Source: Actinomycetota bacterium
Lineage (GTDB): Bacteria; Actinomycetota; UBA4738
Direction of reading: 5' to 3'
NCBI GenBank assembly: GCA_040414485.1
Contig: JBEDUK010000053.1
Location: 3,887 to 67,886 of the forward strand
Length of the DNA stretch: 64,000 nucleotides
Shown here piece by piece: positions 6,251 to 49,288 of the stretch (its first letter is position 1; each line of letters starts with the position of its first letter). Under the pieces are notes generated by a model. It did not search any database, was not told the origin of the DNA, and worked only from the letters and a program-made list of their open reading frames with translations. Position numbers and translations under genes: made by a program.

Positions 6251-6254
6251 GCCC

Positions 6255-7847: not shown

Positions 7848-7922
7848 GCTCGCGGGGCGGACCGGCCGCCACCCCCGCCGCGATCCCAGCCGTGATCCCG
7901 GCGGCGACCCTGGCCGTGTCCC

Positions 7923-7964
7923 CGCCGTCGCCATATGTATGGCGTATGGCGGTATGGCGACGGC
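7923..7964. repeat. 12-bp perfect inverted repeat (GCCGTCGCCATA / TATGGCGACGGC) enclosing TATGGCG x3 tandem heptamers
   Basis: Read directly in the imuB-dnaE2 intergenic gap. Confidence 0.6.
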
Positions 7965-8022
7965 TGCGCCGCGAAGGGCAGCCGGCGCGCGAACACGGCG
8001 CTGAAGAGGGAGCAGAACCGAC

Positions 8023-14317: not shown

Positions 14318-14539
14318 CTACGCCGCGGCCAGATCGCTGAGCACGACCGTGCGCGCCTCGCGCACGCAGGCGTCGTACTCGCGCTTGCGGATCACGACGA
14401 GCGCCTTGATGGCCTCGACGTGCCCGGACTCGTCGCGGAGCTGCTCGTACTCGTCCTTGAACTGACGCAGGAGCAGCCGTTCGGCCTCGAGCCGGATGAG
14501 CCCCTCGCCCTTCACCACCATGCTCATGGAGCGTGTCAC
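14318..14539 (-). CDS. small hypothetical protein (about 73 aa), predicted coiled-coil
   Basis: Very strong GC3 codon bias. GGAAAGGG RBS-like sequence upstream of the GTG/ATG start. Confidence 0.45.
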   Translation of the reverse strand: MTRSMSMVVKGEGLIRLEAERLLLRQFKDEYEQLRDESGHVEAIKALVVIRKREYDACVREARTVVLSDLAAA

Positions 14540-14672
14540 CCTTTCCCTTTCCGTTGGTGTGTTTGTACCACGATCAACGCAAGAGGTAATAGTGACGTTC
14601 CCAGGGCCGTCGTCGACGCAACAGGTTCGTCATATCCTCGTGCCGCCCACGAGCCACCGAACGGGAGCGACC

Positions 14673-15758
14673 ATGGCCTCGGACATCGATGACATCAGCC
14701 TCATGGAGCTGCAGCTCGCGGCGCGAAATCACGGCATGCCGCTCGAGGCGCTGCAGTGGGACGTCACCCCGATCGGGCTCCATTACCTGCTCACGCACTT
14801 CGACATCCCGGCCGTGGACCCGAACGCTTGGCGCCTCGGGGTCGGGGGCCGCGTCGAGAACGGGATGACGTTGACCCTGGAGGAACTGCGCGCGCGCCCG
14901 GCGGTGACGGCCGCCGTCACGTTCGAATGCGCCGGCAACGGGCGTGCCCACCTGTCGCCCAGACCCGCCAGCCAGCCGTGGATCTCCGAGGCGGTCGGGA
15001 CTGCCGAGTGGACCGGGACGCCGTTGCGAGGTCTGCTGGAGGAAGCCGGCCTCAGGGACGACGTCGTCGAGGTGACGTTCGCCGGGCTCGACCGCGGGAT
15101 CGAGGGTGACGTCGAGCACATCTTCGAGCGGAGCCTCACGGTGGACGAGGCCATGCGGAACGACGTGCTCCTCGCGTACGAGATCAACGGCGTGCCGCTC
15201 CCACCGCAGCACGGTTTCCCGCTGCGCCTGGTGGTGCCCGGCTGGTACGGGATGACGAACGTAAAGTGGCTCGAGCGGATCACGGCCATTTCCGAGCCGT
15301 TCGACGGCATCCAGCAGTCGAAGAACTACCGGTTCAAGATGGACTCGGACGACAAGGGCACGCCGTTGTCGCGGATGCGGCCGCGCGCGTTGATGGTGCC
15401 GCCGGGCACGCCGGACTTCCCGGAGCGGCGACGGTTCGTGCCGGTGGGGCGCCACGAGCTGGTGGGCAAGGCCTGGTCCGGCTCGGCGCCGATCGCTCGG
15501 GTCGAGGTGAGCACCGATGGCGGCACGTCCTGGTCGGACGCGCGGCTCGTCGCCGGCGCGCCCGGCGCGTGGAGCTCCTGGACGTTCGAATGGGCGCCGT
15601 CCGAGCCCGGTGACGTCGAGCTTCTCTGCAGGGCGACCGATGCGGAGGGCAATTCCCAACCGGATGAACCCGAGTGGAACGCCGGTGGCTACGTGAACAA
15701 CTCGGTGCAGCGCGTGCCCGTCACGATCATCGACGACGGCAGCAGGTCAGGTTCGTAA
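14673..15758 (+). CDS. sulfite oxidase-family molybdopterin oxidoreductase
   Basis: NGVPLPPQHGFPLRLVVPGWYGMTNVKWLERI is the Mo-cofactor domain signature, followed by a C-terminal dimerisation/Ig domain. Start trimmed to the ATG after a GGGAG RBS. Confidence 0.85.
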   Translation: MASDIDDISLMELQLAARNHGMPLEALQWDVTPIGLHYLLTHFDIPAVDPNAWRLGVGGRVENGMTLTLEELRARPAVTAAVTFECAGNGRAHLSPRPASQPWISEAVGTAEWTGTPLRGLLEEAGLRDDVVEVTFAGLDRGIEGDVEHIFERSLTVDEAMRNDVLLAYEINGVPLPPQHGFPLRLVVPGWYGMTNVKWLERITAISEPFDGIQQSKNYRFKMDSDDKGTPLSRMRPRALMVPPGTPDFPERRRFVPVGRHELVGKAWSGSAPIARVEVSTDGGTSWSDARLVAGAPGAWSSWTFEWAPSEPGDVELLCRATDAEGNSQPDEPEWNAGGYVNNSVQRVPVTIIDDGSRSGS

Positions 15759-17702
15759 CGTAGCCTGACTATCTTCAGGCTCGCGCTCGCCGCCGGTGAG
15801 TCGCGAGGCGATCGCGCCGCCGGCAGCAACGATGAACCAAACGACCCACGACACCGTCGTTCCCAGACCCACGCCCAGACGCGAAACGATCGTCCCAACG
15901 AGAACGAGCGAGCCCGCCCCGACCGCCGGCGTCAGGCCGTATCGGACGGCCGGGTGCGCTCGATCGCCAAGGACCACGCGCGTCCAGCCATAGCCGGCGA
16001 TCGCCAGCAGCGCGAGGAATCCGACTGTCCACAGCGCTGAGGGAACCACACCCGGGAAGGAGTTCGGCTTCGTCGATGCTCGAGCGACATGAGTCGGCAA
16101 CCGGCCCCTGTCTCCGGGGAGCACGAGAACTCCAGGACCCACCGCCTTTCCCTCACTGCTCAGGTCGACGAACTCCTTCGTATCGAACGACCGAAGGATC
16201 AGGAACGGGGCCGGCGTGGAGCTCCGGAGCACGGGCTGAGCGGCATCCCAGTACGGCCTGACGGCGGCGCGCATCGCGGGACTGAGCCCGTTGAAGGGGT
16301 CGTTGAGCGCCGATGCGACGATGTTTCCGGGAACCATGTGAAGGTGCTCCTGGAGGTTCGCGGGCAGCGCCGCCCGTATCGTTCGTTCCTTGAGCGCAGC
16401 CGACTCAGTCCCCGCGGGACCGAACGGGCTCACCCAGATGACGAATGGACCTGGCTTCAGTGTTTCGAGCCAAGCCGCAGCCGTTCGCACTTCCTGAAGC
16501 GCCTCAGGGGTCACCCAGGGCTTGGGAGCGCCGCTCGCGTACCAGGCCGAGACACCCGGGATCGCCAGTAGGACGCAGGCCGCCGCCGCCACGACCGCGG
16601 CGCCCCTCCCCGCGCGCCGAGCCAACCAGCCAACGGCCTCGGCGATCGCGACGACGCCTGGCACCACGATCGCCAGCTCGAGGAACCGGTGCGGCGGAAG
16701 CTTCTTCGTCGCCAGCCCGAAGACGATTCCGCCTGCACAGACCACGAGCCATGCAGCCAGAAGAGACAGAAGAACGGCTCGCCGCCTCTCATGTCTTTTC
16801 TGCGCGTCCGCCGGCTCCAGCAATATCCACCCACCGAATGCGGCGACCGGCGCCAGAAGCCAGAGACGAAGGCGCGAGGCGTCGTTCGTCAGCTTCGGGA
16901 CGAACCGGCTTGGGTCCTCGCGCAATGAGATGGTGTTCGCCGGCGCGCGGAGCAGGCCGAACACCGTGACGCTCATCGCGCCGGCGACCCAGAGGCCCGC
17001 GGAGGTGAGCGTCCCGGCCTCGGTTCGCGCCAGCGACACGGCCTCGCCACGGCTGCGCCGAAGCGACCCCGGCGCCAGCAGGATCACCGCACCCAGCAGC
17101 ATCAGCCCGAACACGGCCAGGAAGAGCCAATGCGCCAGGCCCGCGGCAACGAGCAGAACGACGGAGCCGACGAACCCCCACCGTGAAGCGCCGTCTGCGG
17201 CCGCCGCCGCGACCAGCAGTGTCACCGCGGCGACACAAAGACAGAGAAACAGCAGCGTCGCGACGTTCTCGTCCACCAGCCGCGTCGCCCCCAGGACCGT
17301 TCCTCCGACCACGACCGCCGCCAGCCAGCGCCATCGATGGCGCCCGAGCGACGACCACACCAGCGCCCCGAGCGACAGCGCGAACACCCCCGGCAGCACG
17401 GGTCCGAGCAGGACGGCTACGGTGAACTGAGAGCGCCCGGTCAGCCCGCCGATCAGAGCCGCCAGCACGGCAGACCCGGGCCGGGTCGACGTCCCAAGGG
17501 GCCCCATCCCGTGGTCTGCGACGAACGACGCGCGCCACACGTACCAGGGCGCATCGAATCCGACCGGCAGGGTATATCCCTTCGTCCGGTACAAACCGAG
17601 ATAGACGCCCGCGACGCCGACGGCCAGCGCGGCGCAGGCGAGCGCCCAGCGCAGACTCGTGTTGCGGCCCGGTGGAGACGGTTCGTGCTGCTTGTTCGGC
17701 AT
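15747..17702 (-). CDS. GT-C-like polytopic membrane protein, paralogue A (unclassified family)
   Basis: More than 10 TM helices in the first ~350 aa. Loop-1 motif FDAPWYVWRASF. Extracytoplasmic C-terminal domain plus a terminal TM. Paralogous to genes at 20212, 22371, 26851 and 31564. Confidence 0.7.
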   Translation of the reverse strand: MPNKQHEPSPPGRNTSLRWALACAALAVGVAGVYLGLYRTKGYTLPVGFDAPWYVWRASFVADHGMGPLGTSTRPGSAVLAALIGGLTGRSQFTVAVLLGPVLPGVFALSLGALVWSSLGRHRWRWLAAVVVGGTVLGATRLVDENVATLLFLCLCVAAVTLLVAAAAADGASRWGFVGSVVLLVAAGLAHWLFLAVFGLMLLGAVILLAPGSLRRSRGEAVSLARTEAGTLTSAGLWVAGAMSVTVFGLLRAPANTISLREDPSRFVPKLTNDASRLRLWLLAPVAAFGGWILLEPADAQKRHERRRAVLLSLLAAWLVVCAGGIVFGLATKKLPPHRFLELAIVVPGVVAIAEAVGWLARRAGRGAAVVAAAACVLLAIPGVSAWYASGAPKPWVTPEALQEVRTAAAWLETLKPGPFVIWVSPFGPAGTESAALKERTIRAALPANLQEHLHMVPGNIVASALNDPFNGLSPAMRAAVRPYWDAAQPVLRSSTPAPFLILRSFDTKEFVDLSSEGKAVGPGVLVLPGDRGRLPTHVARASTKPNSFPGVVPSALWTVGFLALLAIAGYGWTRVVLGDRAHPAVRYGLTPAVGAGSLVLVGTIVSRLGVGLGTTVSWVVWFIVAAGGAIASRLTGGEREPEDSQATLRT

Positions 17703-17788
17703 AGAGGCGTTCCGTACGATAAGTCGTCCGCGCCGGCCGCGATGCACGAAGCACCATGCAGCCGCGCGGCCGCCATTCGTCTGGATGA

Positions 17789-19036
<1,248 letters not shown>

Positions 19037-19064
19037 CGCACCCGAGCCACGTGGGCACCCGGCA

Positions 19065-20111
19065 GTGAGTGCACTTCGCGTCGTCGGCGCGCTGTTCGCC
19101 GTCCTGATCTTCGTCGTTCAGGTTCGGCGGTATTCCAGGCGGCAGGCCTCGCGGCTCAGCCTGATCGTCACGGGCATCATCGCGTTGCTGGTGCTCCTGC
19201 TCGCCATCCAGCCGAACTGGTTCAACTTCATCCTCGCGGACTTCGGCTTCCAGGAGGGCAACAACCAGCGTCTGATCGGCGTGCTGATGGTCGGCGAGGT
19301 GATCCTGTTCTCGCTGATCCTTCGGAACTGGTCGGAGGTCGACACCGCCCGCAGTTCCATCCGCATGCTGGTCGAGTCGCTCGCCGTCCAGTCGTTCGAC
19401 TGGGAGGCCGCCAAACGGCTGCCCGACGACGCACGCGTCGTCGTGGTGCTGCCCGCGTTCAACGAGGCAGAGAACATCGGCGCGGTCCTGCATGCCATGC
19501 CCGAGGATGTCGAGGGCCTCCGCGTGGTGCCGGTCGTGGTGGACGACGGCTCGGAGGACGGCACGGCGGACATCGCGCGGGCGAACGGCGCGCTGGTGGC
19601 GCGGCACCCGATCCGGCGCGGCGGGGGCCTCGCCATGCGCGTCGGCTACGAGATCGGGATCCGGCTGAACGCCGAGGTCGTCGTCACCATGGACGCCGAC
19701 GGCCAGCACGTGCCGGACGAGATGACGCTGCTGGTCAAGCCCATCGTCGAAGGGCAGGCCGATCTGGTCAACGGCTCGCGCGTGCTCGGCGAGTTCGAAC
19801 GGGAATCACTGGTCCGGCACGTCGGGGTGCACTTCTTCTCCCGGATCGTGACGATCATGATCGGGACCCGCATCACCGACGTCTCGAACGGCTATCGCGC
19901 GGTCCGCACCGACGTGCTGAAGAACCTGCAGCTCGACCAGGACCAGTTCTGGGCGAGCGAACTGCTCATCGAGGGCATGCGCCACCGCCTTCGGATCGTG
20001 GAGGTCCCGATCACGATCCGGGCGCGGCAGGGCGGCGAGTCGAAGAAGCCGAAGAACTGGAAGTACGGATGGCACTTCGCGAAGGCCATCATGAAGACAT
20101 GGTTGCGATGA
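19065..20111 (+). CDS. GT2 polyprenyl-phosphate glycosyltransferase (Dpm1/GtrB/CsbB-like) with N-terminal 3-TM extension
   Basis: VVVLPAFNEAENIG, VVDDGSEDGT, TMDADGQH, NGSRV…SNGYRAV. GTG start 28 nt after the sqdB stop. Confidence 0.85.
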   Translation: MSALRVVGALFAVLIFVVQVRRYSRRQASRLSLIVTGIIALLVLLLAIQPNWFNFILADFGFQEGNNQRLIGVLMVGEVILFSLILRNWSEVDTARSSIRMLVESLAVQSFDWEAAKRLPDDARVVVVLPAFNEAENIGAVLHAMPEDVEGLRVVPVVVDDGSEDGTADIARANGALVARHPIRRGGGLAMRVGYEIGIRLNAEVVVTMDADGQHVPDEMTLLVKPIVEGQADLVNGSRVLGEFERESLVRHVGVHFFSRIVTIMIGTRITDVSNGYRAVRTDVLKNLQLDQDQFWASELLIEGMRHRLRIVEVPITIRARQGGESKKPKNWKYGWHFAKAIMKTWLR

Positions 20112-20211
20112 GGGGCCGCGAGCGGCGATGACGGCCGACGGCTGACCGCCGCTGCGGCGGTGCCGGCGGTCACCAATTCGCCACAGGCCCTGGGTACAGT
20201 TAGGTCGACCC

Positions 20212-22374
20212 ATGCACGCGCCCACCGAAGCCGATCCCGCCAGCGTCGAGCAGCGCGGGGAACAGGCGACGGCTGGGCGGAAGCCCGCGCACTGGGCGGG
20301 ATGGATCCGTTCGAATCTCCCGGCACTCGCGCTGGTCGCGCTCGCCGGCGGCCTCGTCGCCGCGTTCTATCTGGGCCTGTACTGGGTGAAGCGGTACAAC
20401 ATGCCGATCGGCTGGGACACGCCGCGGTACCTGGACCAGGTGAACCTCGTCGCCTCGCACGGCCTGCGTGGTGTGCCGCACCAGCTTCCCCCGCCGATCA
20501 AGACGCTCCCCAGCCGCGGTGCCTTCCCGATCCTCACACTGTCGCTCTCGGGCCTGTTCGGCATCTCGACGTTCGCGAGCGCGACGGTGGTGCCGCCGGC
20601 GGCCGTGGCGGCGCTCGCCCTCGCCGCTGGTGCCCTGGTGACGTTCACGACGAGGCGCGGCGTGTGGTCCGGCGCGGCCGTGGCGCTCCTGGTGGGGACC
20701 TCGGCGGTGGCGATCCGGTTGATGGCGCCGGAGACGTACACGGACAACCTCGTCGCCGCCGCGATCTTCGTGGCCGCGCTCGTTCCGCTGGTCTCGGCCG
20801 CGGGCGACGCGGCGGCCACCGGATTCCTCGCGGCCTGCGTGCTGCTCGGCGCCGGAGCGATCGCGCACAGCCTGTCGTTCGGCGTGGTCGCCGCAGCCAT
20901 CGGCCTGACCGCGCTGGTCTTCGCGCCCGCGTCATGGGCGTCGTGGCGACGCGGCTCGCGCCTCACCGACACACCGAGCGCACGGCTGGCGGGCGCGGCG
21001 GTGGGGGGCGGGGCGCTCGCCGCGGTCGGGATCTTCGGTGTGCTGCGGGCTGCGCCCGACACGCCGAAGCTGACCCGCGGTGAGCTGACCAAGAAGCTTC
21101 GTGAGGATGTGCCGCTGTACCGGTACTGGATCACGGTGCCGCTTGCGGCCCTCGGCGCCCTCGCGCTGTGGCGGACCCCGCGGGACGACGAGCCCAACGC
21201 GACCCAGGACGCGACCCCGGACGCCGTCACAAGTACGCCGGCGAGCGACGGGTCCGGAAAGGTCGCGTCTGGAAAGGGTTCGGCCGAAACCGGGCCGGGG
21301 ACGGCGCGCGTGCTGTTCGTGCTGCTGCTCTCGTGGACCGCGGTGACGCTGATCGGCCTGGCGCTGTTCGCGCTCGGCCGGAACGCGCCGGCACACCGCT
21401 TCCTGTCGTTCCTGCTGCCGCTTCCCGTGCTCGGCGCGGTGGGGATCCTGTGGCTGGCCGGACTCCTCCGCCGGAGAACCGGCGGTGCGGGCCGCGCCGT
21501 CGCGGTCGGTGTGGTCGCCGTCGCCATCGGCGCGTCCGTCGCGGTCGGCTATCACGACCTCTACTCCACGCTGGCCGGCCCGAACCGTGGCGTGGAGTGG
21601 CTGGATCCGGCGAAGGTGCAGGATGCGGCGACCGCCGCGGCGTATCTCGACGCCGCCCGGGTCCCATCGACCGACCCGGTCGTGTTCGTGATCGACGATC
21701 AGGGGCCGAACCCGCTTTCGTACGTACCGGAGATGACGTACATGCTCCGCGCGGTGCTGCCCGCCGATCGCCTCCCGAACGTGTACGTCTACGTGGGGAA
21801 CCCGGAGAAATACCTGCGGGGCCTGCCGACCGAGCGGGCGCATCCCAGGACCTACGACGCGAACGCCGCGCGCTTCTGGCCGGCGGTCCAGCGGCTGCTT
21901 CCGGAGCATCCGATCGCCCTGCTGCTCGCGTCCTTCAACCCGATGTATCAGGCCGAAGCCGCGCGGACACCCGGGCGGGTGGCTGCCCCCAATGTGCTCG
22001 TGCTCCACGGACCGAGGCCCTCGACGCGCGTGGCGGCCCCGGCCATCCCCACCGGACCCCGCGGTGGCCGTCAGGGAGCGCTGTTCGGCGCAGGCGCGCT
22101 GGTGGCGCTCGCACTCGCCGGGTGGGGGTGGGCGTGCGCGCTCCTGCCTCGAACCGTTCGGCCGTTCGAGTCGTTCGCCATGGCGCCCGCGTTCGGTCTG
22201 GCGTTCCTGATCCTCGGCGGCATCCTCGCCGACGCCCTCGGCATCCGCCTCGGCGGCGGGGGCGGTGCGGCACTGGTGATCGTCGTCGCCGTGGGCGGAG
22301 CGGCCGCCGCGTTCGTCCGGCTGCGCCGAAGCTCCGGCCGGCCCGACCACCCCGTGGCGGTCGCGGCCGCATGA
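20212..22374 (+). CDS. GT-C-like polytopic membrane protein, paralogue B
   Basis: YLGLYWVKRYNMPIGWDTPRYLDQVNLVASHG aligns with paralogue A (YLGLYRTKGYTLPVGFDAPWYVWRASFVADHG). Multi-TM. Confidence 0.75.
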   Translation: MHAPTEADPASVEQRGEQATAGRKPAHWAGWIRSNLPALALVALAGGLVAAFYLGLYWVKRYNMPIGWDTPRYLDQVNLVASHGLRGVPHQLPPPIKTLPSRGAFPILTLSLSGLFGISTFASATVVPPAAVAALALAAGALVTFTTRRGVWSGAAVALLVGTSAVAIRLMAPETYTDNLVAAAIFVAALVPLVSAAGDAAATGFLAACVLLGAGAIAHSLSFGVVAAAIGLTALVFAPASWASWRRGSRLTDTPSARLAGAAVGGGALAAVGIFGVLRAAPDTPKLTRGELTKKLREDVPLYRYWITVPLAALGALALWRTPRDDEPNATQDATPDAVTSTPASDGSGKVASGKGSAETGPGTARVLFVLLLSWTAVTLIGLALFALGRNAPAHRFLSFLLPLPVLGAVGILWLAGLLRRRTGGAGRAVAVGVVAVAIGASVAVGYHDLYSTLAGPNRGVEWLDPAKVQDAATAAAYLDAARVPSTDPVVFVIDDQGPNPLSYVPEMTYMLRAVLPADRLPNVYVYVGNPEKYLRGLPTERAHPRTYDANAARFWPAVQRLLPEHPIALLLASFNPMYQAEAARTPGRVAAPNVLVLHGPRPSTRVAAPAIPTGPRGGRQGALFGAGALVALALAGWGWACALLPRTVRPFESFAMAPAFGLAFLILGGILADALGIRLGGGGGAALVIVVAVGGAAAAFVRLRRSSGRPDHPVAVAAA

Positions 22375-24413: not shown

Positions 24414-26854
24414 CCGAACAGACGCTCGAAGGACGGCACCGGGCGGAGAGGCCCGCCACGCGGCTGCGCACCTTCGTGAGCGCAACCCTCGGCCCCGCCA
24501 TGATCGTCGTGGCGGTGCTGGTCGTCCTTCGGAACTATGCGTTCCGGGGCATGATCACCACCCAGCACGGCGACATCCTCGAGTACTGGCTCCCGGCCTT
24601 CGATCATCTCGGACGGACGCTTCGGTCCGGACACATCCCCGCCTACAACCCCTTCTCGATGGCCGGCGCGCCGTTCGCCGCCGATCCGCAGAGCGGGTGG
24701 ATGTACCTCCCCGCGATGGTGCTCTTCACGGTGCTCCCGGCCGCGGCGGCGATCCGGTGGTTCCTGGTCGTCCAGCCGATCCTGGCCGGGCTCGGCGCCT
24801 ACTGGTTCCTCCGCGGCGAGGACGTGAACCGCCCCGCCAGCACGGCGGGCGGCCTCGTGGCGGCGCTCATCATGGCCGGCTCCCACATCGGCCTCGAACT
24901 GCCCTTCGCCGGCGCGCTCGCCTGGACCCTGCTCGCGCTCGCCGCCGCGGCGCGTTTCGTTCGAAGCGAGCGGTGGGGGCCCCGCCTCGGCTGGCTCGCG
25001 GCCACCGCCATCGCGTGGGGGCAGATCGCGGCCGCGCACCTCAGCCACGGGCTCGTCACCGGCACGGCGCTCCTGCTCACGTACGTCGTGTTCCGCCTGG
25101 CGAGCGGCGCGCACGGGAGGCGGGACTGGCTGCGTGCGGCCGGTGTGTTCGTTCTGACCCTCGTCTCGCTTGCCGCGGTCAACCTCGCGTATCTGCTTCC
25201 CCGGATCGCCTACCTCCCGCGCACGACGCTCGCGCTGGGATATTCGACACTGAACGACCTGGCCGGCCGGCTGAGCGGCCAACCGATCCCGGTCGCGCAT
25301 CCCTCAGAGGCGCTGCTGATCGGCGGGAACTGGCTCCTCGGGCTGGCCTCGGCACCGGGCGCGTATCTCGGCGCGGCGGCGATGGCGCTGTCGTTCGCCG
25401 GCCTGTGGTCGAAGCGGCACCGAGGCCTGACGATCACGCTGCTGGGCTTCGGGTTCGTGTTCTACGTGCTCTCGCTGCACGGCGTCGCGACAGACCTCGG
25501 CCCGCACATCACATGGATCCCGTTCGCCGACTTCTACATCCACGCGCCCGTGCGGTTCCGCTACGGCGTGATCCTGGTCCTGCCCCTGCTGGCAGCGCTG
25601 GGCACGCACGCGTGGATCACCGAGCGCGGCTGGCGCGTCCATGTCTGGATGGTCGTTCCGGGCGTGGCCCTGTGGTGGGTCCTGAACGCGATCATCGGCC
25701 GCGCGGGCGCCTTCCCGACGCTCTTCGTCGTGGGCTCGGTGGCCGCCGCGGTGGTGTTGACCCTGGTCGCCTGGCGGCCCAGCCTGGCATGGGCGATCCC
25801 CGTGCTGCTGATGATCGAATTGACCGCCAACGGCGTGTTCGGCGCACGGCTGCCCCGGCAGAACACGGGCTCTCCATGGGGCCCGAACCTGGTGCCGATG
25901 GTAAAGATAGCTGACTATATGAAGCAAGGGACACTCGCTCACGTCATCGCCGCGAGCGGCGACGGCAGGTACATCACCGTCGCGCCGAGGGGGCAGGGCA
26001 AGCCGGGACGGGCGTTCATCCTGACCCACCCGGCCACGTGGCCCAGCCTCGCCGACGGGCGCTCGATCCTGTTTCAGATCCAGGCCGCGGACGGCTACAA
26101 CCCGACGCAGCTCCTCCGCTACTGGCAGTTCGTGCGCTCGGTCACCAGCCGCCGTTTGACGTACAACTCCTCGTCGTTCCCGAAGCCGGTGCCGCGGACC
26201 GCGCTGGATCTGCTTGCAGTCCGATGGCTCCTGGCGCCGGTGGACACCGGACCGGGGGTGGTCGGCGCGAAGCGGGTGGCCACCGAGGGCCGGTGGGGGC
26301 TCTACGAGGTGCGGCCGGTACCGCCCCGGGCGAGCCTGCTCGGCTCCTGGACGGTGGCCGCCTCGCCCGACGAGGCCCGCAGGGACGTGGTCGACCCGGC
26401 ATTCGATCCGAGCTCCAAGATCGTGCTCGAACGCGACCCGGGCGTGAGCGCGGAGGTGGTCCCGCCGGGCGGTCCGGGAACGGCCGTCTATCGCGAGGAC
26501 GGACCGAACAGCGGCACGATCCTGGTCGACGCCAGGGTCCCGGGCGTGTTGCTCATCAGGAATCCGTTCGGCCCGGGCTGGCACGCCGCCCTCGACGGCC
26601 GAAGCGTCCCGCTGGTGCCGGGCGACTTCGTCGACCAGGCGGTGGCGGTGCCGGCCGGGCACCACGTGATCCAGGTGAGGTTCGACGACCCGGCCGTCGG
26701 ATGGGGGCTCCTGGGGACGGTGATCGCGCTGGCGCTCCTGCTCGGGCTGGCGGGAGCGGCGACCGTTCGCGCCCGCCGAAGAGAGGGCGAGGGTCTCGGG
26801 CTGGACTTCACCCGAGCGCCCGAACAGACGCGCGCGGGTGCGCCGGCTCCATGA
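24410..26854 (+). CDS. YfhO-family membrane protein (GT-C-like glycosyltransferase)
   Basis: 815 aa. N-terminal YfhO-type motifs (HGDILEYWLPAFDHL…IPAYNPFSMAGAPFAADPQSGWMYLP). ATGA start/stop overlap with paralogue C. Confidence 0.75.
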   Translation: MTEQTLEGRHRAERPATRLRTFVSATLGPAMIVVAVLVVLRNYAFRGMITTQHGDILEYWLPAFDHLGRTLRSGHIPAYNPFSMAGAPFAADPQSGWMYLPAMVLFTVLPAAAAIRWFLVVQPILAGLGAYWFLRGEDVNRPASTAGGLVAALIMAGSHIGLELPFAGALAWTLLALAAAARFVRSERWGPRLGWLAATAIAWGQIAAAHLSHGLVTGTALLLTYVVFRLASGAHGRRDWLRAAGVFVLTLVSLAAVNLAYLLPRIAYLPRTTLALGYSTLNDLAGRLSGQPIPVAHPSEALLIGGNWLLGLASAPGAYLGAAAMALSFAGLWSKRHRGLTITLLGFGFVFYVLSLHGVATDLGPHITWIPFADFYIHAPVRFRYGVILVLPLLAALGTHAWITERGWRVHVWMVVPGVALWWVLNAIIGRAGAFPTLFVVGSVAAAVVLTLVAWRPSLAWAIPVLLMIELTANGVFGARLPRQNTGSPWGPNLVPMVKIADYMKQGTLAHVIAASGDGRYITVAPRGQGKPGRAFILTHPATWPSLADGRSILFQIQAADGYNPTQLLRYWQFVRSVTSRRLTYNSSSFPKPVPRTALDLLAVRWLLAPVDTGPGVVGAKRVATEGRWGLYEVRPVPPRASLLGSWTVAASPDEARRDVVDPAFDPSSKIVLERDPGVSAEVVPPGGPGTAVYREDGPNSGTILVDARVPGVLLIRNPFGPGWHAALDGRSVPLVPGDFVDQAVAVPAGHHVIQVRFDDPAVGWGLLGTVIALALLLGLAGAATVRARRREGEGLGLDFTRAPEQTRAGAPAP

Positions 26855-28869
26855 GCGACCGCCGCGACGATCCGGTCGGCGGCTGGCTCGTCGCCGTCAT
26901 CGGGTTCGGGATCCTGCTGTTCTTCGTCGCCATCTATCCGGCCCTGGGCCTGCGGGCCCCGATCGGATCCGACTCGCCCGTCTACATCTGGTGGGCCCGG
27001 CTGGGAGGTGCGGCCGGACTCGGGCCGCTCGGCACCGGTGCCCGGCCCGCGGCCGTCGGCCTGGTCGCCGCGCTCGGTGGCGGCGCCTCCTCGGGAGCGG
27101 CTGCGGTGGCCGAAGCGCTCCCGCCGGTGCTCGCCGTGGCGGTGGCGCTGGCCGCGTCCACGTTTGGGCTCACGTCCGTTCGACATTCCAGGCAGCAGCT
27201 CGCGTTCGTGTTCGCGTCCGGTTTCGTCGGGGTCTTCCTGAGCTATCTCGTGCCCGGCTACCTGTCGACGGTCGCGTTCCTCACGGGGTTCGCCGGCATG
27301 CTCGCGGTCGTCAACCTGTCCGCCGGGAGCGGTGGCGCCGGCCCGTTCCTGCTGGCGGGCGCGCTCCTCGCGGCCGCGGGGCTCTTTCATCCGTTGTTCC
27401 TGCTGCTCGGTGCCGGGATCTCGGCAGGCGCCGCACTGGCGCTGGTACCGGCCTGGCGGGACGCTCGCCGCGCCTCGGCGCCGTTCGGGTCCACGGTCCT
27501 CGGGCGGATGAGCCTCGCATGGGCGCTGGCGCTTCCCGCCGTGGGGCTGGGGCTGCTGGCGTCCGGGGCGGGCACGGCGGCGAACGTCGACACCTCGCGC
27601 GACTCGGTGCTTCGGCGCGTGCACCTCGGGAATCTGCTCCGCGACTCGTACATGCGAAAGCTCCACCACGACGTGCCGTGGTGGAGGTCCGCGACGGCGG
27701 TGCTGCTCCCGCTCACGGCCCTGCCCCTGCTGTCCAAAGGACCCGCACGCGACCCCGCGGAACGGGAGCGCGGCGCCATGTTCTGGGGTGCGATGGCCGC
27801 GTGGCTGCTGATCACGCTGGCGGGTGTGGGCCTCCTGCTGCTCGCCGGGTCCGCCGCCCCCGGGCAGCGCCTGTTCGTCGTCTGCCTGGCGTTTCCCCTC
27901 CTGGCGGGGCTCGGGCTGTCCGGCCTTCGATTCCGGTCGCGCGCCCTGACCGTCGTCGCCGCGGCGCTCGGCGCCGGGCTGTTCCTCGCCGCGCTCGGTT
28001 CGTACTGGTGGTCGAGCCGGCCGCTGGTGACGCCGACGCAGACACTGGAGGCACGGGCGGCCGGCGAGGCCCTCGGCGCGCTGCGCGCGGGAACGCCGCT
28101 GATCGTGGTGGCGGACGACCGATCGGACAAGCCGGCCCTGTTCCTCACGAGGTACGCGAACGTGGTGCGCGGGGCGGTGCCGGCCGCCCGGGTCCCCGAC
28201 GTCCACCTGTGGGTTGGAACGCCGGCCGACTTCCTCCGCAACCGGCCGACGCTGACGGGCAACCAGGAGCACGACCGGATGTCGGCCATGTATCGGCAGG
28301 AGGCCCAGCCGAGCCTTCGACACAGCCCGCTCGTCGTCGCGATCCGGTCGTTCGATGGGGGAGGCTACGCGGCCGCGGCGGCGCTTCCCGGCTCGAAGCT
28401 GCTCGCCCCGGGCGTGGTCGTTCTGCCGGGGTATCCGGGCGAACCGCGGCCGCCGGGTGCGCCGGCCCAGGCGGCCGGCCTGACCGAACCCGGAGCCGGG
28501 CCGCTGTCGCCGTGGCTGCCCGTCTGGCTGGCGCCGCTCCTGCTGCTGGGATTCGGCCTGACGGGGTGGCCCTGGATCCGCCTCGCGCTGCGGGCTGCGG
28601 CCGGGTCACATGCGCTCGCGCTCGCTCCAGCGGTCGGGATCGCCGCGCTCGGGCTCGGTGCGGCGCTCGCCGACGCGGTCGGCATCCGCCTCTCATCCCC
28701 GGGCGGGACGGCCGCGATGGTCGTGGTCGCGCTGATCGGGTGGGCAGCCCTGGCGTGGTCCCGTCACCGCGCGAATCGGGCGAGCGGGCTCAGGGCATCG
28801 GCGAGTGCCCCGACGCCGGACAGTTCGGGATCGGCGGCAGCGGATCCGGCTTCGCCGGCGCCTGTGTGA
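26851..28869 (+). CDS. GT-C-like polytopic membrane protein, paralogue D
   Basis: ATGA overlap with YfhO. Motif PIGSDSPVYIWWARLGG. Multi-TM. Confidence 0.7.
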   Translation: MSDRRDDPVGGWLVAVIGFGILLFFVAIYPALGLRAPIGSDSPVYIWWARLGGAAGLGPLGTGARPAAVGLVAALGGGASSGAAAVAEALPPVLAVAVALAASTFGLTSVRHSRQQLAFVFASGFVGVFLSYLVPGYLSTVAFLTGFAGMLAVVNLSAGSGGAGPFLLAGALLAAAGLFHPLFLLLGAGISAGAALALVPAWRDARRASAPFGSTVLGRMSLAWALALPAVGLGLLASGAGTAANVDTSRDSVLRRVHLGNLLRDSYMRKLHHDVPWWRSATAVLLPLTALPLLSKGPARDPAERERGAMFWGAMAAWLLITLAGVGLLLLAGSAAPGQRLFVVCLAFPLLAGLGLSGLRFRSRALTVVAAALGAGLFLAALGSYWWSSRPLVTPTQTLEARAAGEALGALRAGTPLIVVADDRSDKPALFLTRYANVVRGAVPAARVPDVHLWVGTPADFLRNRPTLTGNQEHDRMSAMYRQEAQPSLRHSPLVVAIRSFDGGGYAAAAALPGSKLLAPGVVVLPGYPGEPRPPGAPAQAAGLTEPGAGPLSPWLPVWLAPLLLLGFGLTGWPWIRLALRAAAGSHALALAPAVGIAALGLGAALADAVGIRLSSPGGTAAMVVVALIGWAALAWSRHRANRASGLRASASAPTPDSSGSAAADPASPAPV

Positions 28870-30103
28870 ACGAGAAGTCGTAGGACAGGTCGCCCGCTTC
28901 CTTGTCGCGTTTGGTCAATTGCGGCAGGCTCCAGTTGTCCTCGATGAACCGGAGCACCGAGGAGAACTCGCCCCAGTGGTGGTCGACCTTGCCGGAGATC
29001 GCGTACGGGCTGATCACCATCAGCGGGACGCGGAACCCCAGTCCGAACTGGTCGACCTGCTGCGGCGCCACGTGGTCGTAGAACCCGCCCCATTCGTCCC
29101 ATGAGACGAAGACGGCGGTGTCCTTCCACATGTCGCTCTTCATGATCGCGTTGACCACGCCGGTCAGCCAGTTCTCGCCCTCGCACATCGACGTCCGGAA
29201 CTTCGGATGCTCCGAATCCTCGAACCGGGGCGCGATCCAGGTGACCGCCGGCAGGCGGTCGTGGTTGATGTCGTCCACCACATGGTCCACGGGAAGGATG
29301 TGCGCCCACTCCTTCGTCATGCGGATGTGGCGGATCGAGTTGTAGGCGGACCAGATGTAGCCGTTCTGGTCGGATTCGGCCGTGTAGGACGCCCACGGCA
29401 CACCGGCCTCGGACAGCAGGTCGCCCTCGGTCTGGAGGTCGAAGCACGGCGGCTTCTCGACGGGATTCCCCTCCTGGTCGTAGACCGGCACCTTCTCCGC
29501 GGCGGGCGCGTCGCACCCCCACGACTTGGCCTTGCCGGACGGGCGCGGCGCTCTCGCGTTCGGCCCGTCGCGGGTCCCGGCGGAGTCGGCGGCGATCGTG
29601 AACAGCCGGTTCGGGAACGACGATCCCAGCACCGAGGCGAAGAAGTTGTCGCCGAGCACGAACCGCTTCGCCCATGCCCACAGGTTCGGGATCTGGTCCG
29701 GGTACATCTGCGTGTACGCGTAGTTCGCGTCGTAGCCCGCCACGTGGTGGCCGAAGCCGTCCATGTTGCCCTTGTTCCAGTCGGCGACGGCGTCGGAGTA
29801 GGCGTGCGGCACGTCCTGCGGGATCACCCAGGAGCCGCGCGTGAGCGGCACCTTCTTGCCGTTCCGCATGCCCGTCGTGGCGCCGTTCGCCCCGGGGAAG
29901 CGCCCGAAGATGTGGTCGAACGACCGGTTCTCCAGGACGATGAACACGACGTGCTTGATGGGCCACGTCGTCTTGATGGAGGAGGCCGGCGGGCCGTCGA
30001 CGACGCCGCGCGAACCGGTGCACCCCGCCGCCAACAGCGCGAGCACCACGCTCACGCCGGCCGCTCCGCGCAGTCTCCTGGCTGCTCGACCCCCCGCAGT
30101 CAC
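28790..30103 (-). CDS. phosphoesterase-family protein (PLC/AcpA, Pfam phosphoesterase), lipoprotein
   Basis: IKHVVFIVLENRSFDHIFGRFPG…WGGFYDHV. Lipobox LLAAGC. GTG start inferred. The 419-aa ORF 28764..30023 is a frame-shifted shadow of this gene. Confidence 0.8.
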   Translation of the reverse strand: MTAGGRAARRLRGAAGVSVVLALLAAGCTGSRGVVDGPPASSIKTTWPIKHVVFIVLENRSFDHIFGRFPGANGATTGMRNGKKVPLTRGSWVIPQDVPHAYSDAVADWNKGNMDGFGHHVAGYDANYAYTQMYPDQIPNLWAWAKRFVLGDNFFASVLGSSFPNRLFTIAADSAGTRDGPNARAPRPSGKAKSWGCDAPAAEKVPVYDQEGNPVEKPPCFDLQTEGDLLSEAGVPWASYTAESDQNGYIWSAYNSIRHIRMTKEWAHILPVDHVVDDINHDRLPAVTWIAPRFEDSEHPKFRTSMCEGENWLTGVVNAIMKSDMWKDTAVFVSWDEWGGFYDHVAPQQVDQFGLGFRVPLMVISPYAISGKVDHHWGEFSSVLRFIEDNWSLPQLTKRDKEAGDLSYDFSFTQAPAKPDPLPPIPNCPASGHSPMP

Positions 30104-30107
30104 GCCG

Positions 30108-31502
30108 TCACGGTACCGGCTTCGCCGCCGCCTGGGCGGCAAGCCAGGCCGGTAGGTGCGGGAACGGGTAGTCGATGCAGTCGCTTCGCAGCGGCAACGG
30201 GTCCGGTAATCGGGGGCTTCGCGTGAAGTCGAAGTCGTAGGACAGATCATTCGCCCGTTCGTCCCTGTTGGTCAGTCGTTGAGTGATGCCCCAGTTCTCA
30301 TCGACGAAGCGCAGCACCGACGCGAACTCGCCCAGGCGGTGGTCGACATGGCCGGTGCGCGCGTACGGGCTGATCACCATCAACGGGACGCGGAACCCCA
30401 TACCGAACGCGTCTACTTTCGGCGGCTTGACGTGGTCGTAGAAGCCGCCCCATTCGTCCCAGGAGAGGAACACCGCGGTGGTCGGCCAGTCGGGGCCGAG
30501 CATCAGCGCGTCGATGATCCGGGTGGACCAGTTCTCCCCGCGGCAGAGGCTGGCCCCGGCGTCGGGATGGTCCGAGACCTCGTAGGTGGGCGTGACCCAC
30601 GACACGGCCGGAAGGTCCCCCTTGCGCGCGTCGGCCACGAACGTGTCGACCGGACGGATGTGCTGCTTCCACGCCGAGGTGTCGCGGATGTGACGCACGG
30701 CGCCGAACGCCGACCAGATGTACCCGCTCTGGTCAGCCGTCGCGGCGTACGCCCGCCAGGAGATGCCCCGACGGGAGAGCAGGTCCCCTTCGGTCCGCAT
30801 GTCGAAGCAGGGAGGGATCCGGACGTCGTCGTCGCCGTCGCCGTCGGTCACGGTCACGTGCTCTGAACGCGGCGCGTCGCACCCCCAGGACTTGGCGGCG
30901 CCGCCGACGGGAGCGACGTCGTCCGGGGTGTCGTGCACGCCGCCCGACTGGCCGGCGATGGTGTACAGGTGGTTCGGGAACGACGGTCCCATCGCCGAGG
31001 CGAAGAAGTTGTCGGAGAGCACGAAGTTCTTCGCCCAGTGCCAGTAGTTGGGGATCTGGTCGGGCCGCATCTGCGTGTATGCGTAGTGGCGGGCGATCGG
31101 CGTCTGGCCGAAGCCGTCCATACGGCCACCGTCATAGTCGGCGACGGCGTCCGCGTAGTGGTGCGGGAGCCGCGCCGGGATGCGCATGACGCCGTCGCGC
31201 AGCGGGACACGACGCCCGTTGTCAAGGCCGGTTCGCACGCCGTTCGCTCCAGGAAAGCGCCCGAACAGATTGTCGAAGCTGCGGTTCTCCTTGACGACGA
31301 ACACGACGTGCTTGATGGGCCACTTCGTGCTGAGCGGGACTGCATCGGTGCCCGGCGCCAGCCAAAACGCACCACCGGCGAGGACGACAAGGCACGCGCC
31401 GATCACGCCGGCGGCGCGGAAGAGAGACGAACGCGGAGCAGTGGGACGAGCCTCGATGGGCCCCGAGTATACTCCCGGCAGTTGGTTGGACCGGCCGGGC
31501 AC
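30108..31502 (-). CDS. phosphoesterase-family protein (PLC/AcpA) paralogue, secreted
   Basis: [23 protein letters not shown]…WGGFYDHV. Signal-peptide-like h-region. Start uncertain; GTG at 31502 proposed. Confidence 0.7.
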
Positions 31503-31563
31503 CCCTCCCGGCCGCCCACGGGGAGGCGGCCGCGAGTCTGCGGTCGCCCACGGCCGGAAAGGG

Positions 31564-33681
31564 ATGCCAGGGATGCGGACCAGCGAGGCCGCCCCCGCGC
31601 GAACCTCCCGCGGAGCGATCACGAGCCGCCGGCGCGAGGTCGTCTTCGACGTCGCGATCGTGGTCGCGTTCGGATTGCTGCTGCTGGGACTGGCCTGGCC
31701 GTTCCTGAAGGACACCACCCGGCTCGCGGTGACCAAGGACCCCGCCTGGTACACCTGGCGGGGGAAGCTGATCCTCGAAGCCAACCCCGCGCTGCTCCTG
31801 ACCAAGCATGGACCGTTCGGCATGCTCTCCGGCGGGTACCGGATCACCACGCCGGTGTTCGGGGCGCTTCTGAACCGCGTGGCGGGGATCGCGCCCCAGC
31901 GGTTCACGATCCTGCAGATGATCCTGGCGCCGCTCATGGCGAGCGCCGCCCTGGGGGCGTTCGCCTACCGGAACAAGCGCCGGCCGTTCCTGTTCCTGAT
32001 CACCATGCTCGCGGGTGTCGGTCTGTTCATGACCACGCCGTACCTCGGCTACCTCGACGACGTGACGTGCCTGTTCCTGCTGGCCACCATGCTTCCGTTC
32101 CTCGCGCCGGCAAGGACGTCGTGGGGCGCGCGATCGGCGGTGGCGCTGATCCTGTTCCTGGCCATGCTGACGCACCCGACCACCACGGGGATCTTCGCCC
32201 TGGTGCTGGTGGCGAGCGCCGTCTGGCGGCTGATCGCGTTCCGGTTCGACTGGCGGAAGGTGGCCGAGATGGACGGGCCGATGCTGGTCTCGGCGCTGGT
32301 CGGCCTGCTCGCCGGGGCGGTCTTCTGGAAGCTCGGGCTGTGGGGGGCGAAGGCGGGCTTCGGTGAGGCCGTGCTGGCGCAGCCGTACACGTCGGCGTTC
32401 TTCAAGGCGCGCCTCCAAAGTTGGCTCCAGAGCCTGCATCCGCTGGCCACCTACACGCTGGCCCTGCTGGCGGGGGCCTACATCGTGTCCACCTGGTGGC
32501 AGGACCGGCCGAAGCCCGCGGACTGGCACTCGCGGATCTCGCTGTTGTGGACGCTTCCCCTGATCGGGATCTTCGGGTTCCTGGCCGGCCGCTCGTATCC
32601 GTACTACCGGTTCATCAACCCGACGCTGGCCCCGATGCTTCTCGTCGGCCTGGGCCTGTGGACGCTGGTGTGGGGCGCGCGGCGCGGCGCGAAGCGGCTC
32701 GGATGGAACCGCGAGATCTTCGCCGTCGGCGCCATGGTCATCGCCCTGCTGATCGCCGGGTTCTGGTACCTGAAGCCCGGGTTCCAGACGTGGAACCGGC
32801 AGACGCCGTGGATCGACAATCCGACGCTGGTCGCCGTGACGGCCGCGAGGGCCTACGCGGACGCGCAGCCCGGGACGCCGGTCGTGTTCGTCGTCTCCCC
32901 CGACCCCGCAAGCGCAACGGCCTGGGGCGCGGCGAAGCAGGCCATGAACACCACGCTCGGAGGGCTGTCGGGCAACGAGATCGCGCGCACGTTCTTCTTC
33001 GTCGGGACCCCGCAGGACCTCATCGCGCACCGCCCCACCATCACCGGTCACGCCCTCTATGACCGGATCTCGCGCGGCTTCCTGAGCGATGCCCGGGCCG
33101 GGTTGAAGGGGTTCGACACGCCGCCGGTCGTGCTCCGCCTGGACGTGGACAACCAGTTCGCTCCCGCGTCCGCGCAGGGGTCGCTCCAAGCGTTGACGCC
33201 CGGCGTCTCCGTCGTCGTGGGCCAGGGTCTCGCGCCGTTCTCCACCGATGCTGCCGAAGCGGCGTCGAAGGCCGCCGCCGCGGAGGCCAGGAAGCTCCGC
33301 ACGCATCCGGGCCTGTTCGACGACCTTGGGCATCTGCTGCGAAACGTCATCGGGCTGTTCCTTCTGCTGGTGCTGCCCGGCCTTCTCGCCGCGCGATGGT
33401 TCGACGTCCGCGGGCTCCCGGAGCGGTTGGCGCTCGTACCCGGGCTGTCGGTGGCGCTCGTCCTGGCGGCGGGTGTCGTGGTGATCGCGATCCACCGTGC
33501 CCCGGTGGGACCCGCGGACGGATGGGTCGCGATGGCGTTGGCCGTGGCCGCCGGGCTCGGGTTGCACCTGTTGGCCAGGGCGCGGCCACGGCTCGCCGCC
33601 GGAGCCAACCAGGCATCGCGAGGAGTGGTCGTGGTTCCGGAGGCGAACGGCGACGGCCGCTCGGCCTCACGCAGCCGATAA
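31564..33681 (+). CDS. GT-C-like polytopic membrane protein, paralogue E
   Basis: Motif [19 protein letters not shown]. At least 12 TM helices plus a soluble C-terminal domain. Divergent from phosphoesterase 2. Confidence 0.7.
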
Positions 33682-37096: not shown

Positions 37097-37118
37097 GCGA
37101 TTCGACGGTTCTACGGCG

Positions 37119-49160: not shown

Positions 49161-49288
49161 CGCGAGCAGTGCGAGCCCGCCGGCCTGCGCCGCCCGGAAC
49201 GGCGGAAGCGGCCCGGCGCACTCGTTCGTTCGCCGGTCGTCCTGCCTGCTCCGGACCCGCGTGCCGCCCGTGTCGACCTTGGATTCGC

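Follow-up and report, generated by a model that had tools for sequence, protein, structure and literature searches.

What is the function of five related membrane proteins of 651–720 residues, the genes of which cluster at positions 15747–33681 of the window, as we call the whole 64,000-nucleotide stretch of DNA that was analysed, from an uncultured soil actinobacterium? The proteins, named A to E, are delimited by the most plausible start codons. Paralogue A (15747–17702, minus strand) has 651 residues when started from the ATG at 17702, in an open reading frame that reaches 17810, and carries the first-loop (EL1) motif FDAPWYVW at 17535–17558. The other four are encoded on the plus strand: B (20212–22374, 720 residues, EL1 motif WDTPRYLD at 20413–20436), which is the modelled member; C (22371–24413, 680 residues, EL1 motif at 22500–22523), the ATG of which overlaps the stop codon of B; D (26851–28869, 672 residues, EL1 motif at 26968–26991); and E (31564–33681, 705 residues, EL1 motif KDPAWYTW at 31735–31758), which is the most divergent. 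The pairwise identities are 25–30%, with BLASTP E-values from 1e-19 to 6e-3. A hidden Markov model built only from B orthologues matches A (5e-71), C (9e-67), and D (4e-47) over their full lengths, and a profile built without E matches E at 4e-35. The paralogy of A–E is far beyond chance, and the reading frames together with the BLASTP and profile matches bear out the five-member family of about 650–720 residues that had been proposed by a sequence-only reading of this DNA. A family profile search of the 64,000-nucleotide window gave no sixth member. Each of A–E has a 1:1 orthologue in other, related metagenome-assembled genomes (MAGs), and every member found in these loci falls cleanly into one of five orthogroups. 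The proteins are best read as five ancient paralogues from an unnamed family of integral-membrane glycosyltransferases with the GT-C(A) fold. GT-C enzymes make the outer sugar layers of bacteria and include mycobacterial drug targets.

The family comprises approximately 1,400 clusters at 50% identity, and all members that are named or traceable come from uncultured Actinomycetota. Searches of Pfam and NCBIfam gave zero matches for A–E at E≤1, including those to PMT, STT3, and AglB, and the family profile found nothing among the PDB sequences at E≤10. A word-indexed search with the family alignment returned no new named relatives, and a genome-collection scan with B alone returned only four MAG loci. 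Membership in the PMT/PMT_2, STT3, ArnT, AftA, Emb, AftD, GT87, and YfhO sequence families was rejected because no profile matched at its curated threshold. The sole profile that gives a signal is DUF6541 (PF20176), an uncharacterised membrane family in Pfam on which a literature search returned no paper. It matches seven of 57 family members, the best with 28.5 bits against a gathering cutoff of 29, and none of the five window proteins. Membership in DUF6541 was rejected since the scores remain below the cutoff and the matches are not colinear, as family residues 70–236 correspond to profile positions 166–338 and the C-terminal transmembrane segments to positions 1–73, an order that may reflect a circular permutation. 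The result is a sizeable GT-C family, the carriers of which are abundant in soil, without a name, a Pfam or NCBIfam model, or a solved relative.

The structure of B was predicted by AlphaFold2 with a pLDDT of 91.2 and a pTM of 0.92. When the model was compared with the PDB using Foldseek, the top 14 matches, which span 554–667 alignment columns, had a probability of 1.00, and all were GT-C(A) proteins: AftA, STT3/OST, ArnT, PglB, and AglB. The best match to a transporter had a probability of at most 0.11 and a TM-score of at most 0.12. The GT-C(A) assignment is well supported by the predicted structure, in agreement with the GT-C-like fold that had been suggested from the sequence. The model of B is organized into 11 transmembrane segments, an alpha/beta domain of about 165 residues, and three further transmembrane helices, and the membrane block spans about 420–450 residues. 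The dimensions given in the sequence-only reading, about 350 residues for the block and 250 for the soluble domain, followed by a single terminal helix, have to be replaced by these values. The 'VLVLPG'-like motif that it described is real and has the form [GN]-V-x-V-[LV]-x-G-P, with the G in 195 of 202 full-length family members. The motif makes up the final beta-strand of the soluble domain, about 100–150 residues before the C-terminus rather than near it.

The N- and C-termini of the proteins are probably cytoplasmic, and the first loop and the alpha/beta domain are expected to lie on the outer face. According to the positive-inside rule, which provides only a prediction, this topology is consistent with the density of lysines and arginines, which is 0.19 per residue in the predicted cytoplasmic loops and 0.08 in the short outer loops. 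The A, B, and D orthogroups have 23 conserved positions in common, and no predicted cytoplasmic loop contains any of them. The soluble domain modelled alone reached a pLDDT of 92 and has no significant match among PDB structures (best E 0.13, probability 0.28), those of OST included, so its fold gives no indication of acceptor binding.

Conservation was counted in 202 full-length family members, and also followed in five-way and 57-way alignments. The first-loop aspartate (D69 in B) is present in all 200 members aligned at this position, and is thus kept in every aligned orthologue and paralogue, and the tyrosine four residues further (Y73) occurs in 196 of 202; both are invariant in the five-way and 57-way alignments. 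Additional near-invariant positions are R102 and H219 (199/202 each), W375 (201/202), and R396 (202/202). The five loop motifs quoted in the sequence-only reading under the pattern D-x-x-x-Y-x-W are all present and share the aspartate and tyrosine; the trailing tryptophan is not universal, since it is missing from B and occurs in only 122 of the 202 members. In the model of B, the first juxtamembrane helix (residues 70–83) starts directly after D69, ten residues past the first transmembrane segment. The catalytic aspartates of PimE, ALG6, ArnT, and PglB also lie just before this helix (PMC12041525). Judging by sequence position and secondary structure, D69 probably occupies the catalytic-aspartate place of GT-C enzymes, which agrees with the earlier analogy to the catalytic loop of ArnT and PMT. 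The lack of a second acidic residue, which was noted with this analogy, is no anomaly: the catalytic pair of PimE, D58/Y62, has the identical D-x-x-x-Y arrangement and both residues are essential (PMC12041525). Of the two outcomes that the sequence-only reading named as refuting its idea, a transporter-like fold and a loop aspartate that varies among orthologues, neither was seen.

By analogy with PimE, ArnT, and AftA, the A–E proteins would transfer a sugar from a polyprenyl-monophosphate-linked donor to an acceptor hydroxyl at the outer face of the membrane. D69 at the tip of the first juxtamembrane helix would serve as the catalytic base and may be positioned by Tyr73, one helical turn on, while the leaving phosphate would most plausibly be held by R102, H219, and R396. 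The pattern P-x-G-x-D-x-x-x-Y, together with R102, H219, and R396, provides a testable signature of the family. Of the 14 positions with orthogroup-specific conservation, 12 map to the predicted outer face; among them are 72 and 76, next to D69 and Y73, and 394 and 397, next to R396. Each copy may act on a different acceptor or form a different linkage, as the sequence-only reading suggested; the idea fits the 1:1 orthologues and the orthogroup-specific residues close to the putative catalytic residues on the predicted outer face.

The genes between A and B suggest a source of the donor. A homologue of UDP-sulfoquinovose synthase (SqdB/SQD1; 17846–19036, plus strand, 396 residues) is preceded by an AAGGAG ribosome-binding site and is 61% identical over 383 residues to Arabidopsis SQD1 (1qrr, E 3e-163). 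The [ST]MG...Yx3K fingerprint is intact (GTMGEYG and YHCSK), and its TMG/YxxxK form is specific to UDP-sulfoquinovose synthases (PMC8987622). The protein scores 480 bits with NCBIfam NF041015, under the equivalog cutoff of 575, and has a proline in the position of Arg101 of Agl3/SQD1, as do 116 of its 120 nearest homologues; the Agl3 mutant R101A is inactive (PMC4388408). After a gap of 28 nucleotides follows a homologue of polyprenyl-phosphate glycosyl synthases of family GT2 (19065–20111, plus strand, 348 residues), which consists of an N-terminal DUF2304 membrane domain and a Pfam Glycos_transf_2 domain. It matches the AglJ, PpgS, and dolichyl-P-hexose transferase models of NCBIfam and, in the PDB, DPM synthase (5mlz, 1e-15) and ArnC. 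Protein X (24410–26854, plus strand) is an 814-residue polytopic membrane protein, the gene of which overlaps those of C and D at its ends. Successive reading frames from B through C and X to D share an ATGA overlap, a sign that they form an operon. X is a candidate remote YfhO/PgfM2-like GT-C: its N-terminal part matches the NCBIfam PgfM2 model at 4e-4, the precomputed matches of its orthologues to PF09586 (YfhO) are faint, weak, or unmarked, and the family profile does not match it.

The SqdB homologue lies just upstream of the B orthologue in ten of approximately 18 long loci, with the DUF2304-fused GT2 as the next gene. The ten loci in which the SqdB-GT2 pair precedes the B orthologue by at most 5 kb are the window, L001, L005, L007, L019, L025, L028, L038, L040, and a JGI contig, and the arrangement recurs down to about 36% identity of B. 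YfhO-like GT-Cs are often found near the pair. The DNA retrieved for about eight of the approximately 18 long loci contains no SqdB, and locus L008 has other epimerases and a GT2-methyltransferase in its place.

Two minus-strand genes of the window encode phosphoesterases of the PLC/AcpA family (PF04185). The first (28790–30250) has a lipoprotein-type leader, RR...LAAGC, and orthologues in L001 and L025, whereas the true start of the second (30108–31937) is uncertain; both are possibly accessory to the locus. A molybdoenzyme of the sulfite-oxidase family (14496–15758, plus strand; Pfam Oxidored_molyb and Mo-co_dimer) is convergent with A, recurs as a neighbour in L001, L005, and L040, and is possibly linked to sulfite supply or detoxification. 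Exported phosphoesterases, phosphodiesterases, or a sulfatase were observed next to family members. Among the locus genes scanned there is no recognisable GtrA/GtcA, SMR, or MATE flippase, and just one membrane module, the DUF2304 domain fused to the GT2, has no assigned role. Genes for making an acceptor were likewise not found, and scans for Rfam families, tRNAs, promoters, and terminators gave nothing useful for the locus.

The gene context suggests that A–E use a lipid-phosphate-linked donor, which would be made by the DPM-synthase/ArnC/PpgS-like GT2 encoded just upstream. The donor is most likely polyprenyl-phospho-sulfoquinovose, because the UDP-sulfoquinovose synthase homologue precedes the GT2. 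It would be common to A–E and the YfhO-like X, which may act on different acceptors or positions. To our knowledge, polyprenyl-phospho-sulfoquinovose has not been described before as a lipid-linked donor, and a literature search returned no paper that connects sulfoquinovose to polyprenyl carriers or to GT-C enzymes. Considering sequences, models, and analogy together, we find it reasonably likely that the five paralogues, with D69 as the catalytic residue, constitute an extracytoplasmic glycosylation system with multiple GT-Cs, which this donor would probably supply.

The same enzymes and mechanism could instead use an ordinary donor, such as polyprenyl-P-Glc, -Man, -GlcNAc, or -GalNAc, in which case the SqdB homologue would serve an unrelated product such as SQDG, or make a different 6-modified sugar. 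Hexose or HexNAc nucleotide sugars are the substrates of the characterised proteins closest to the GT2, and the proline at Arg101 across the SqdB clade, the score under the equivalog cutoff, and the several family loci without SqdB in their retrieved flanks point in the same direction. The exported phospholipase-C-type phosphoesterases would fit phosphate-sparing lipid remodelling. However, the UDP-sulfoquinovose synthase fingerprint is intact, the scanned genes of the window include no GT4/GT8 candidate for an SQDG synthase, and the SqdB and GT2 genes remain paired upstream of the GT-C genes across ten loci. We consider an ordinary donor rather unlikely.

Protein glycosylation, in which A–E would act on secreted or membrane proteins in the manner of PMT or oligosaccharyltransferases, is suggested by the presence of STT3, PglB, and AglB among the best structural matches and by the absence of polymer-backbone genes from the locus. 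In addition, X and the GT2 give weak matches to PgfM2 and PgfS from the streptococcal Pgf system (PgfS GT2, PgfE epimerase, and PgfM1/M2 GT-Cs), which glycosylates proteins. The lack of PMT, STT3, and AglB profile matches and of any significant structural match of the soluble domain to OST or other PDB domains makes this improbable, as does the best single structural match, which is the glycan-acting AftA; moreover, a set of five conserved orthogroups would be more usual where a glycan is assembled step by step. It is more improbable still, to the point that we give it hardly any weight, that A–E are transporters or non-catalytic proteins of the GT-C fold. IMG labels the family members P0027 and P0034 as 'MFS family permease', but there is no match to MFS or any other transporter family of Pfam, and the transporter reading was rejected on this profile evidence and the marginal structural matches. 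A GT-C-like fold does occur in PIGU, which is not a glycosyltransferase (PMC12041525), but the predicted outer face carries a polar set (D, Y, R, H, R) that is conserved almost without exception, as would be expected of an active site.

Sulfoquinovose has so far been known from the sulfolipid SQDG and from archaeal N-glycans. The recurrent coupling of the A–E family to SqdB and the GT2 suggests that a lipid carrier can bring the sugar through the membrane for incorporation into bacterial envelope glycans. We propose only tentatively that the donor feeds five to seven GT-Cs that, on the external side of the membrane, build or decorate a sulfonated, phosphate-free anionic glycan or lipoglycan for the envelope of uncultured soil Actinomycetota. 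If so, the polymer would correspond in function to teichoic or teichuronic acids and be built by the logic of mycobacterial arabinan, and the sulfite-oxidase-family enzyme, together with the phosphoesterases, phosphodiesterases, or sulfatase, would belong to the same sulfur and phosphate economy. If sulfoquinovose is delivered on a lipid in this way, the system would provide a new lipid-linked donor, a new sink in the soil sulfoquinovose cycle, and probably a new CAZy family.

The locus resembles the GtrA/GtrB/Gtr*, CsbB/GtcA/YfhO, and GT136 systems in combining a GT2 with GT-Cs, including the YfhO-like X in the operon (PMC5836110, PMC11127046). As in three-component glycosylation, the GT2 is encoded together with the GT-C, and this adjacency recurs in ten loci; in contrast, a recognisable flippase gene is absent here, the GT-Cs are multiple paralogues, and none of YfhO, Gtr*, and GT136 matches the A–E family in sequence. 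In Mycobacterium tuberculosis, the GT2 synthase PpgS (Rv3631) and a small DUF2304-type partner (Rv3632) feed Rv3779, a GT-C of about 670 residues that decorates a wall glycan with galactosamine (PMC3485146). The DUF2304-type partner is separate in that system, whereas it is fused to the GT2 at the A–E locus, and the GT2 scores 94 bits with the PpgS model, far under the equivalog cutoff of 370. The PpgS system has one GT-C and another nucleotide-sugar gene, while the A–E locus has five to seven GT-Cs.

PimE (GT87), a polyprenyl-phospho-mannose-dependent alpha-1,2-mannosyltransferase of mycobacteria, is metal-independent and holds the phosphate by basic and histidine residues (PMC12041525). It shares with A–E the GT-C(A) architecture and the aspartate at the tip of the first juxtamembrane helix with its tyrosine (D58/Y62 versus D69/Y73). 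Unlike A–E, PimE lacks the large soluble domain and the three transmembrane helices that follow it; there is no detectable sequence-profile similarity, and PimE is absent from the top 50 Foldseek matches of B. AftA (GT85; 8if8), the best structural match of B (E 3e-5, TM-scores 0.43/0.50), is likewise a membrane GT-C from actinobacteria. Its outer soluble domain is C-terminal, whereas that of A–E, which is predicted to lie outside as well, is inserted before the three terminal transmembrane helices. The common donor of the mycobacterial Aft/Emb enzymes is decaprenyl-phospho-arabinose. The logic proposed for A–E is that of the Aft/Emb arabinofuranosyltransferases of Corynebacteriales, in which several GT-C paralogues use one polyprenyl-phosphate donor (PMC11127046). 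A–E have no Pfam match to AftA_N/C, Arabinose_trans, or AftD. The donor pathway of the Aft/Emb enzymes proceeds through PRPP and DprE, whereas the A–E locus encodes SqdB and GT2 homologues.

The window, which has a GC content of approximately 70–75%, contains five long membrane-protein genes, A (15747–17702, minus strand), B (20212–22374), C (22371–24413), D (26851–28869), and E (31564–33681; B–E on the plus strand), the products of which share 25–30% pairwise sequence identity (BLASTP, E 1e-19 to 6e-3). A profile built from B orthologues only matches A (5e-71), C (9e-67), and D (4e-47) over their full length, E is matched at 4e-35 by a profile built without it, and a profile search of the window ORFs identified no further family member. 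Locus L001, a 3.06 Mb contig of a related metagenome-assembled genome (MAG), carries the same five genes in identical order, which are 53–74% identical to their window counterparts but just 27–32% identical to the other paralogues. Since, furthermore, all full-length members from the 40 fetched loci sort cleanly into five orthogroups, the duplications are old and every copy has been retained. The BLASTP and profile searches, together with the L001 orthologues, bear out the five-member paralogous family claimed in the sequence-only reading. Most loci of at least 10 kb contain two to five family members, often in addition to one to three YfhO-like genes.

ATGA start/stop overlaps link B, C, X, and D in series, and the four genes thus form one operon. 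X (24410–26854, plus strand) encodes an 814-residue membrane protein that is unrelated to A–E and remotely YfhO/PgfM2-like. Two additional GT-C-type genes encode a PMT_2/STT3-like protein (35657–37321, minus strand) and a second PMT_2 protein (47688–49388, minus strand), and the candidate GT-C genes in 64 kb number eight. The region is syntenic near thiE, an MFS gene, and pknB, and therefore the locus is core chromosomal, not an island. In other lineages, a different polytopic membrane protein of ~690 residues is encoded between or after the B and D orthologues (L005, 7573–9669, minus strand; L040, 12016–14070, minus strand; L038, 13294–15345, plus strand). It matches neither Pfam nor the family profile, and in L005 and L040 it is located where the window has C and X. 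The second family copy of L007 (11751–14543) is split into several frame-shifted pieces and is likely a pseudogene or an assembly error. Exported phosphoesterases recur beside family members: the window has two PF04185 genes (28790–30250 and 30108–31937, minus strand), PF04185 also occurs in L001 and L025, and a PF01663 phosphodiesterase is encoded in L029 (11639–13608), where an APS kinase follows, as well as on a JGI contig. In L039, a sulfatase (7186–8682) is positioned directly upstream of a distant family member. The window also contains the usual mutasome pair (6240–11355, plus strand), an ImuB-like gene of the IMS family with a DnaE2-type polymerase III alpha gene downstream of it; the 98-nt "tRNA-Arg" called by ARAGORN within the ImuB-like ORF (6607–6704) is probably a false positive.

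A–E are matched by no Pfam or NCBIfam model at E ≤ 1, and the family profile finds nothing among PDB sequences at E ≤ 10. DUF6541 alone gives any signal: some B orthologues (7 of 57 members) match it below threshold, with a best score of 28.5 bits against a cutoff of 29. In P0026, P0027, P0031, and P0034, the match is non-colinear: residues ~70–236 align to profile positions 166–338, and the three C-terminal transmembrane helices (~582–669) to positions 1–73, a pattern compatible with one family being a circular permutation of the other. When 1.84 billion representatives were searched exhaustively with HMMER, 1,387 clusters matched at E ≤ 1e-3, 655 of them at E ≤ 1e-30. The organisms of named members are MAGs labelled Actinomycetota, and the proteins, where named, are called "hypothetical protein" or "MFS family permease". 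The latter IMG label (e.g. P0027, P0034) is wrong, as neither profile nor fold evidence backs it. A–E are a new sequence family inside a known fold and mechanism.

The structure of B, predicted by AlphaFold2 from a 57-sequence alignment, is confident (pLDDT 91.2, pTM 0.92). A Foldseek search of the PDB returned 14 matches at probability 1.00, every one of them GT-C(A), namely AftA (8if8, E 3e-5), human and yeast STT3, ArnT (5ezm), PglB, and AglB. According to the helix pattern and charge distribution, the N-terminus of B is inside, and TM1 is followed by an outer loop of ~60 residues with two short helices, ten more transmembrane segments, an outer alpha/beta domain of ~165 residues, three transmembrane helices, and a cytoplasmic C-terminus. 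The predicted cytoplasmic loops contain 0.19 Lys and Arg per residue, versus 0.08 in the short outer loops. This predicted topology corrects the single terminal helix and the domain sizes (a membrane block of ~350 and a soluble domain of ~250 residues) proposed previously. The soluble domain modelled separately (pLDDT 92) has no significant structural neighbour.

Asp69, Tyr73, Trp375, and Arg396 (B numbering) are invariant and His219 nearly so in the 57-sequence alignment. Among 202 full-length members, Asp69 is conserved in 200 of the 200 aligned, Arg396 and Gly637 in all 202, Trp375 in 201, Arg102 and His219 in 199 each, Trp640 in 197, and Tyr73 in 196. All five first-loop motifs quoted in the sequence-only reading are present in A–E; the Asp and Tyr of its D-x-x-x-Y-x-W consensus hold, but the Trp of this consensus, two positions past the Tyr, occurs in only 122/202 members and is Asp in B, and the family signature is P-[IVL]-G-[WFY]-D-[TA]-[PAS]-x-Y. 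The "VLVLPG" motif reads in full [GN]-V-x-V-[LV]-x-G-P and forms the final strand of the soluble domain. In the B model, Asp69 is located 10 residues past TM1, directly ahead of helix 70–83. In PimE, the catalytic base Asp58 at the tip of juxtamembrane helix 1 is held by Tyr62 (PMC12041525), the same D-x-x-x-Y arrangement, and the absence of a second acidic residue is therefore not unusual.

Immediately upstream of B are the SqdB homologue (17846–19036, plus strand) and, 28 nt further downstream, GT2 (19065–20111, plus strand). The SqdB homologue is 61% identical to Arabidopsis SQD1 over 383 residues (E 3e-163), and the hallmark G-xx-G-xx-G, TMG, and YxxxK elements of UDP-sulfoquinovose synthases (PMC4388408, PMC8987622) are retained in it. 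Its score of 480 bits is below the NCBIfam equivalog cutoff of 575, and its cluster mates carry the IMG name UDP-sulfoquinovose synthase. Residue 101 is Pro (HYGEQPSAP), versus Arg101 in SQD1 and Agl3; the R101A variant of Agl3 is inactive (PMC4388408). Because Pro is common to 116 of the 120 nearest homologues, it is a clade feature, not a lesion. A sulfite-oxidase-family molybdoenzyme gene (14496–15758, plus strand; Oxidored_molyb and Mo-co_dimer) is convergent with A, and L001, L005, and L040 have it as a neighbour of their A orthologues. UDP-sulfoquinovose synthase uses sulfite as its co-substrate. GT2 has an N-terminal DUF2304 membrane domain and is closest to AglJ, PpgS, dolichyl-phosphate hexose transferases, archaeal DPM synthase, and ArnC. 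In M. tuberculosis, PpgS (GT2) and the small membrane protein Rv3632 feed the GT-C enzyme Rv3779 (PMC3485146).

The five conserved orthogroups of this GT-C(A)-fold protein share a set of invariant polar residues on the face predicted to lie outside, and their genes accompany those of a polyprenyl-phosphate GT2 and a homologue of UDP-sulfoquinovose synthase. This gene context points to a previously undescribed lipid-linked sulfo-sugar donor. SqdB would make UDP-sulfoquinovose, GT2 would load the sugar onto polyprenyl phosphate, a further component would flip the lipid-linked sugar, and A–E (and X) would each pass it to a different acceptor or position. Asp69 would act as the base, held by Tyr73, and Arg102, His219, and Arg396 would stabilize the leaving phosphate.

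We put forward this donor and these acceptors as hypotheses. Ten independent loci (the window, L001, L005, L007, L019, L025, L028, L038, L040, and a JGI contig, which carries two pairs) have the SqdB–GT2 pair ~5 kb or less upstream of their B orthologue, and no SqdB was found within the DNA retrieved at L008, L010, L011, L016, L017, L024, L029, and L039. For several further B orthologues, the longest contig has the same length as that of an SqdB homologue, and the two genes may be on one contig. As an alternative, an ordinary sugar may be the donor and SqdB may serve another purpose. The window genes scanned include no GT4/GT8 protein that would be a candidate SQDG synthase. In another alternative, the acceptors may be proteins. 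It is very unlikely that A–E are non-catalytic or transporters: transporter folds in the PDB match the B model with a Foldseek probability of at most 0.11 and TM-scores of around 0.1, and the structure search supports the GT-C reading proposed from sequence. The assignment of A–E to the GT-C class is well supported.

A division of labour among the paralogues has some support. Twelve of the 14 positions that are conserved within and different between the A, B, and D orthogroups are located in the outer loops or outer domain, which together comprise ~43% of the aligned columns (chance ~1e-3, binomial estimate). The orthogroup-specific positions include 72 and 76 beside Asp69 and Tyr73, and 394 and 397 beside Arg396. 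The shared-donor logic proposed for A–E is modelled on mycobacterial arabinan, in which several GT-C enzymes use decaprenyl-phospho-arabinose in common (PMC11127046).
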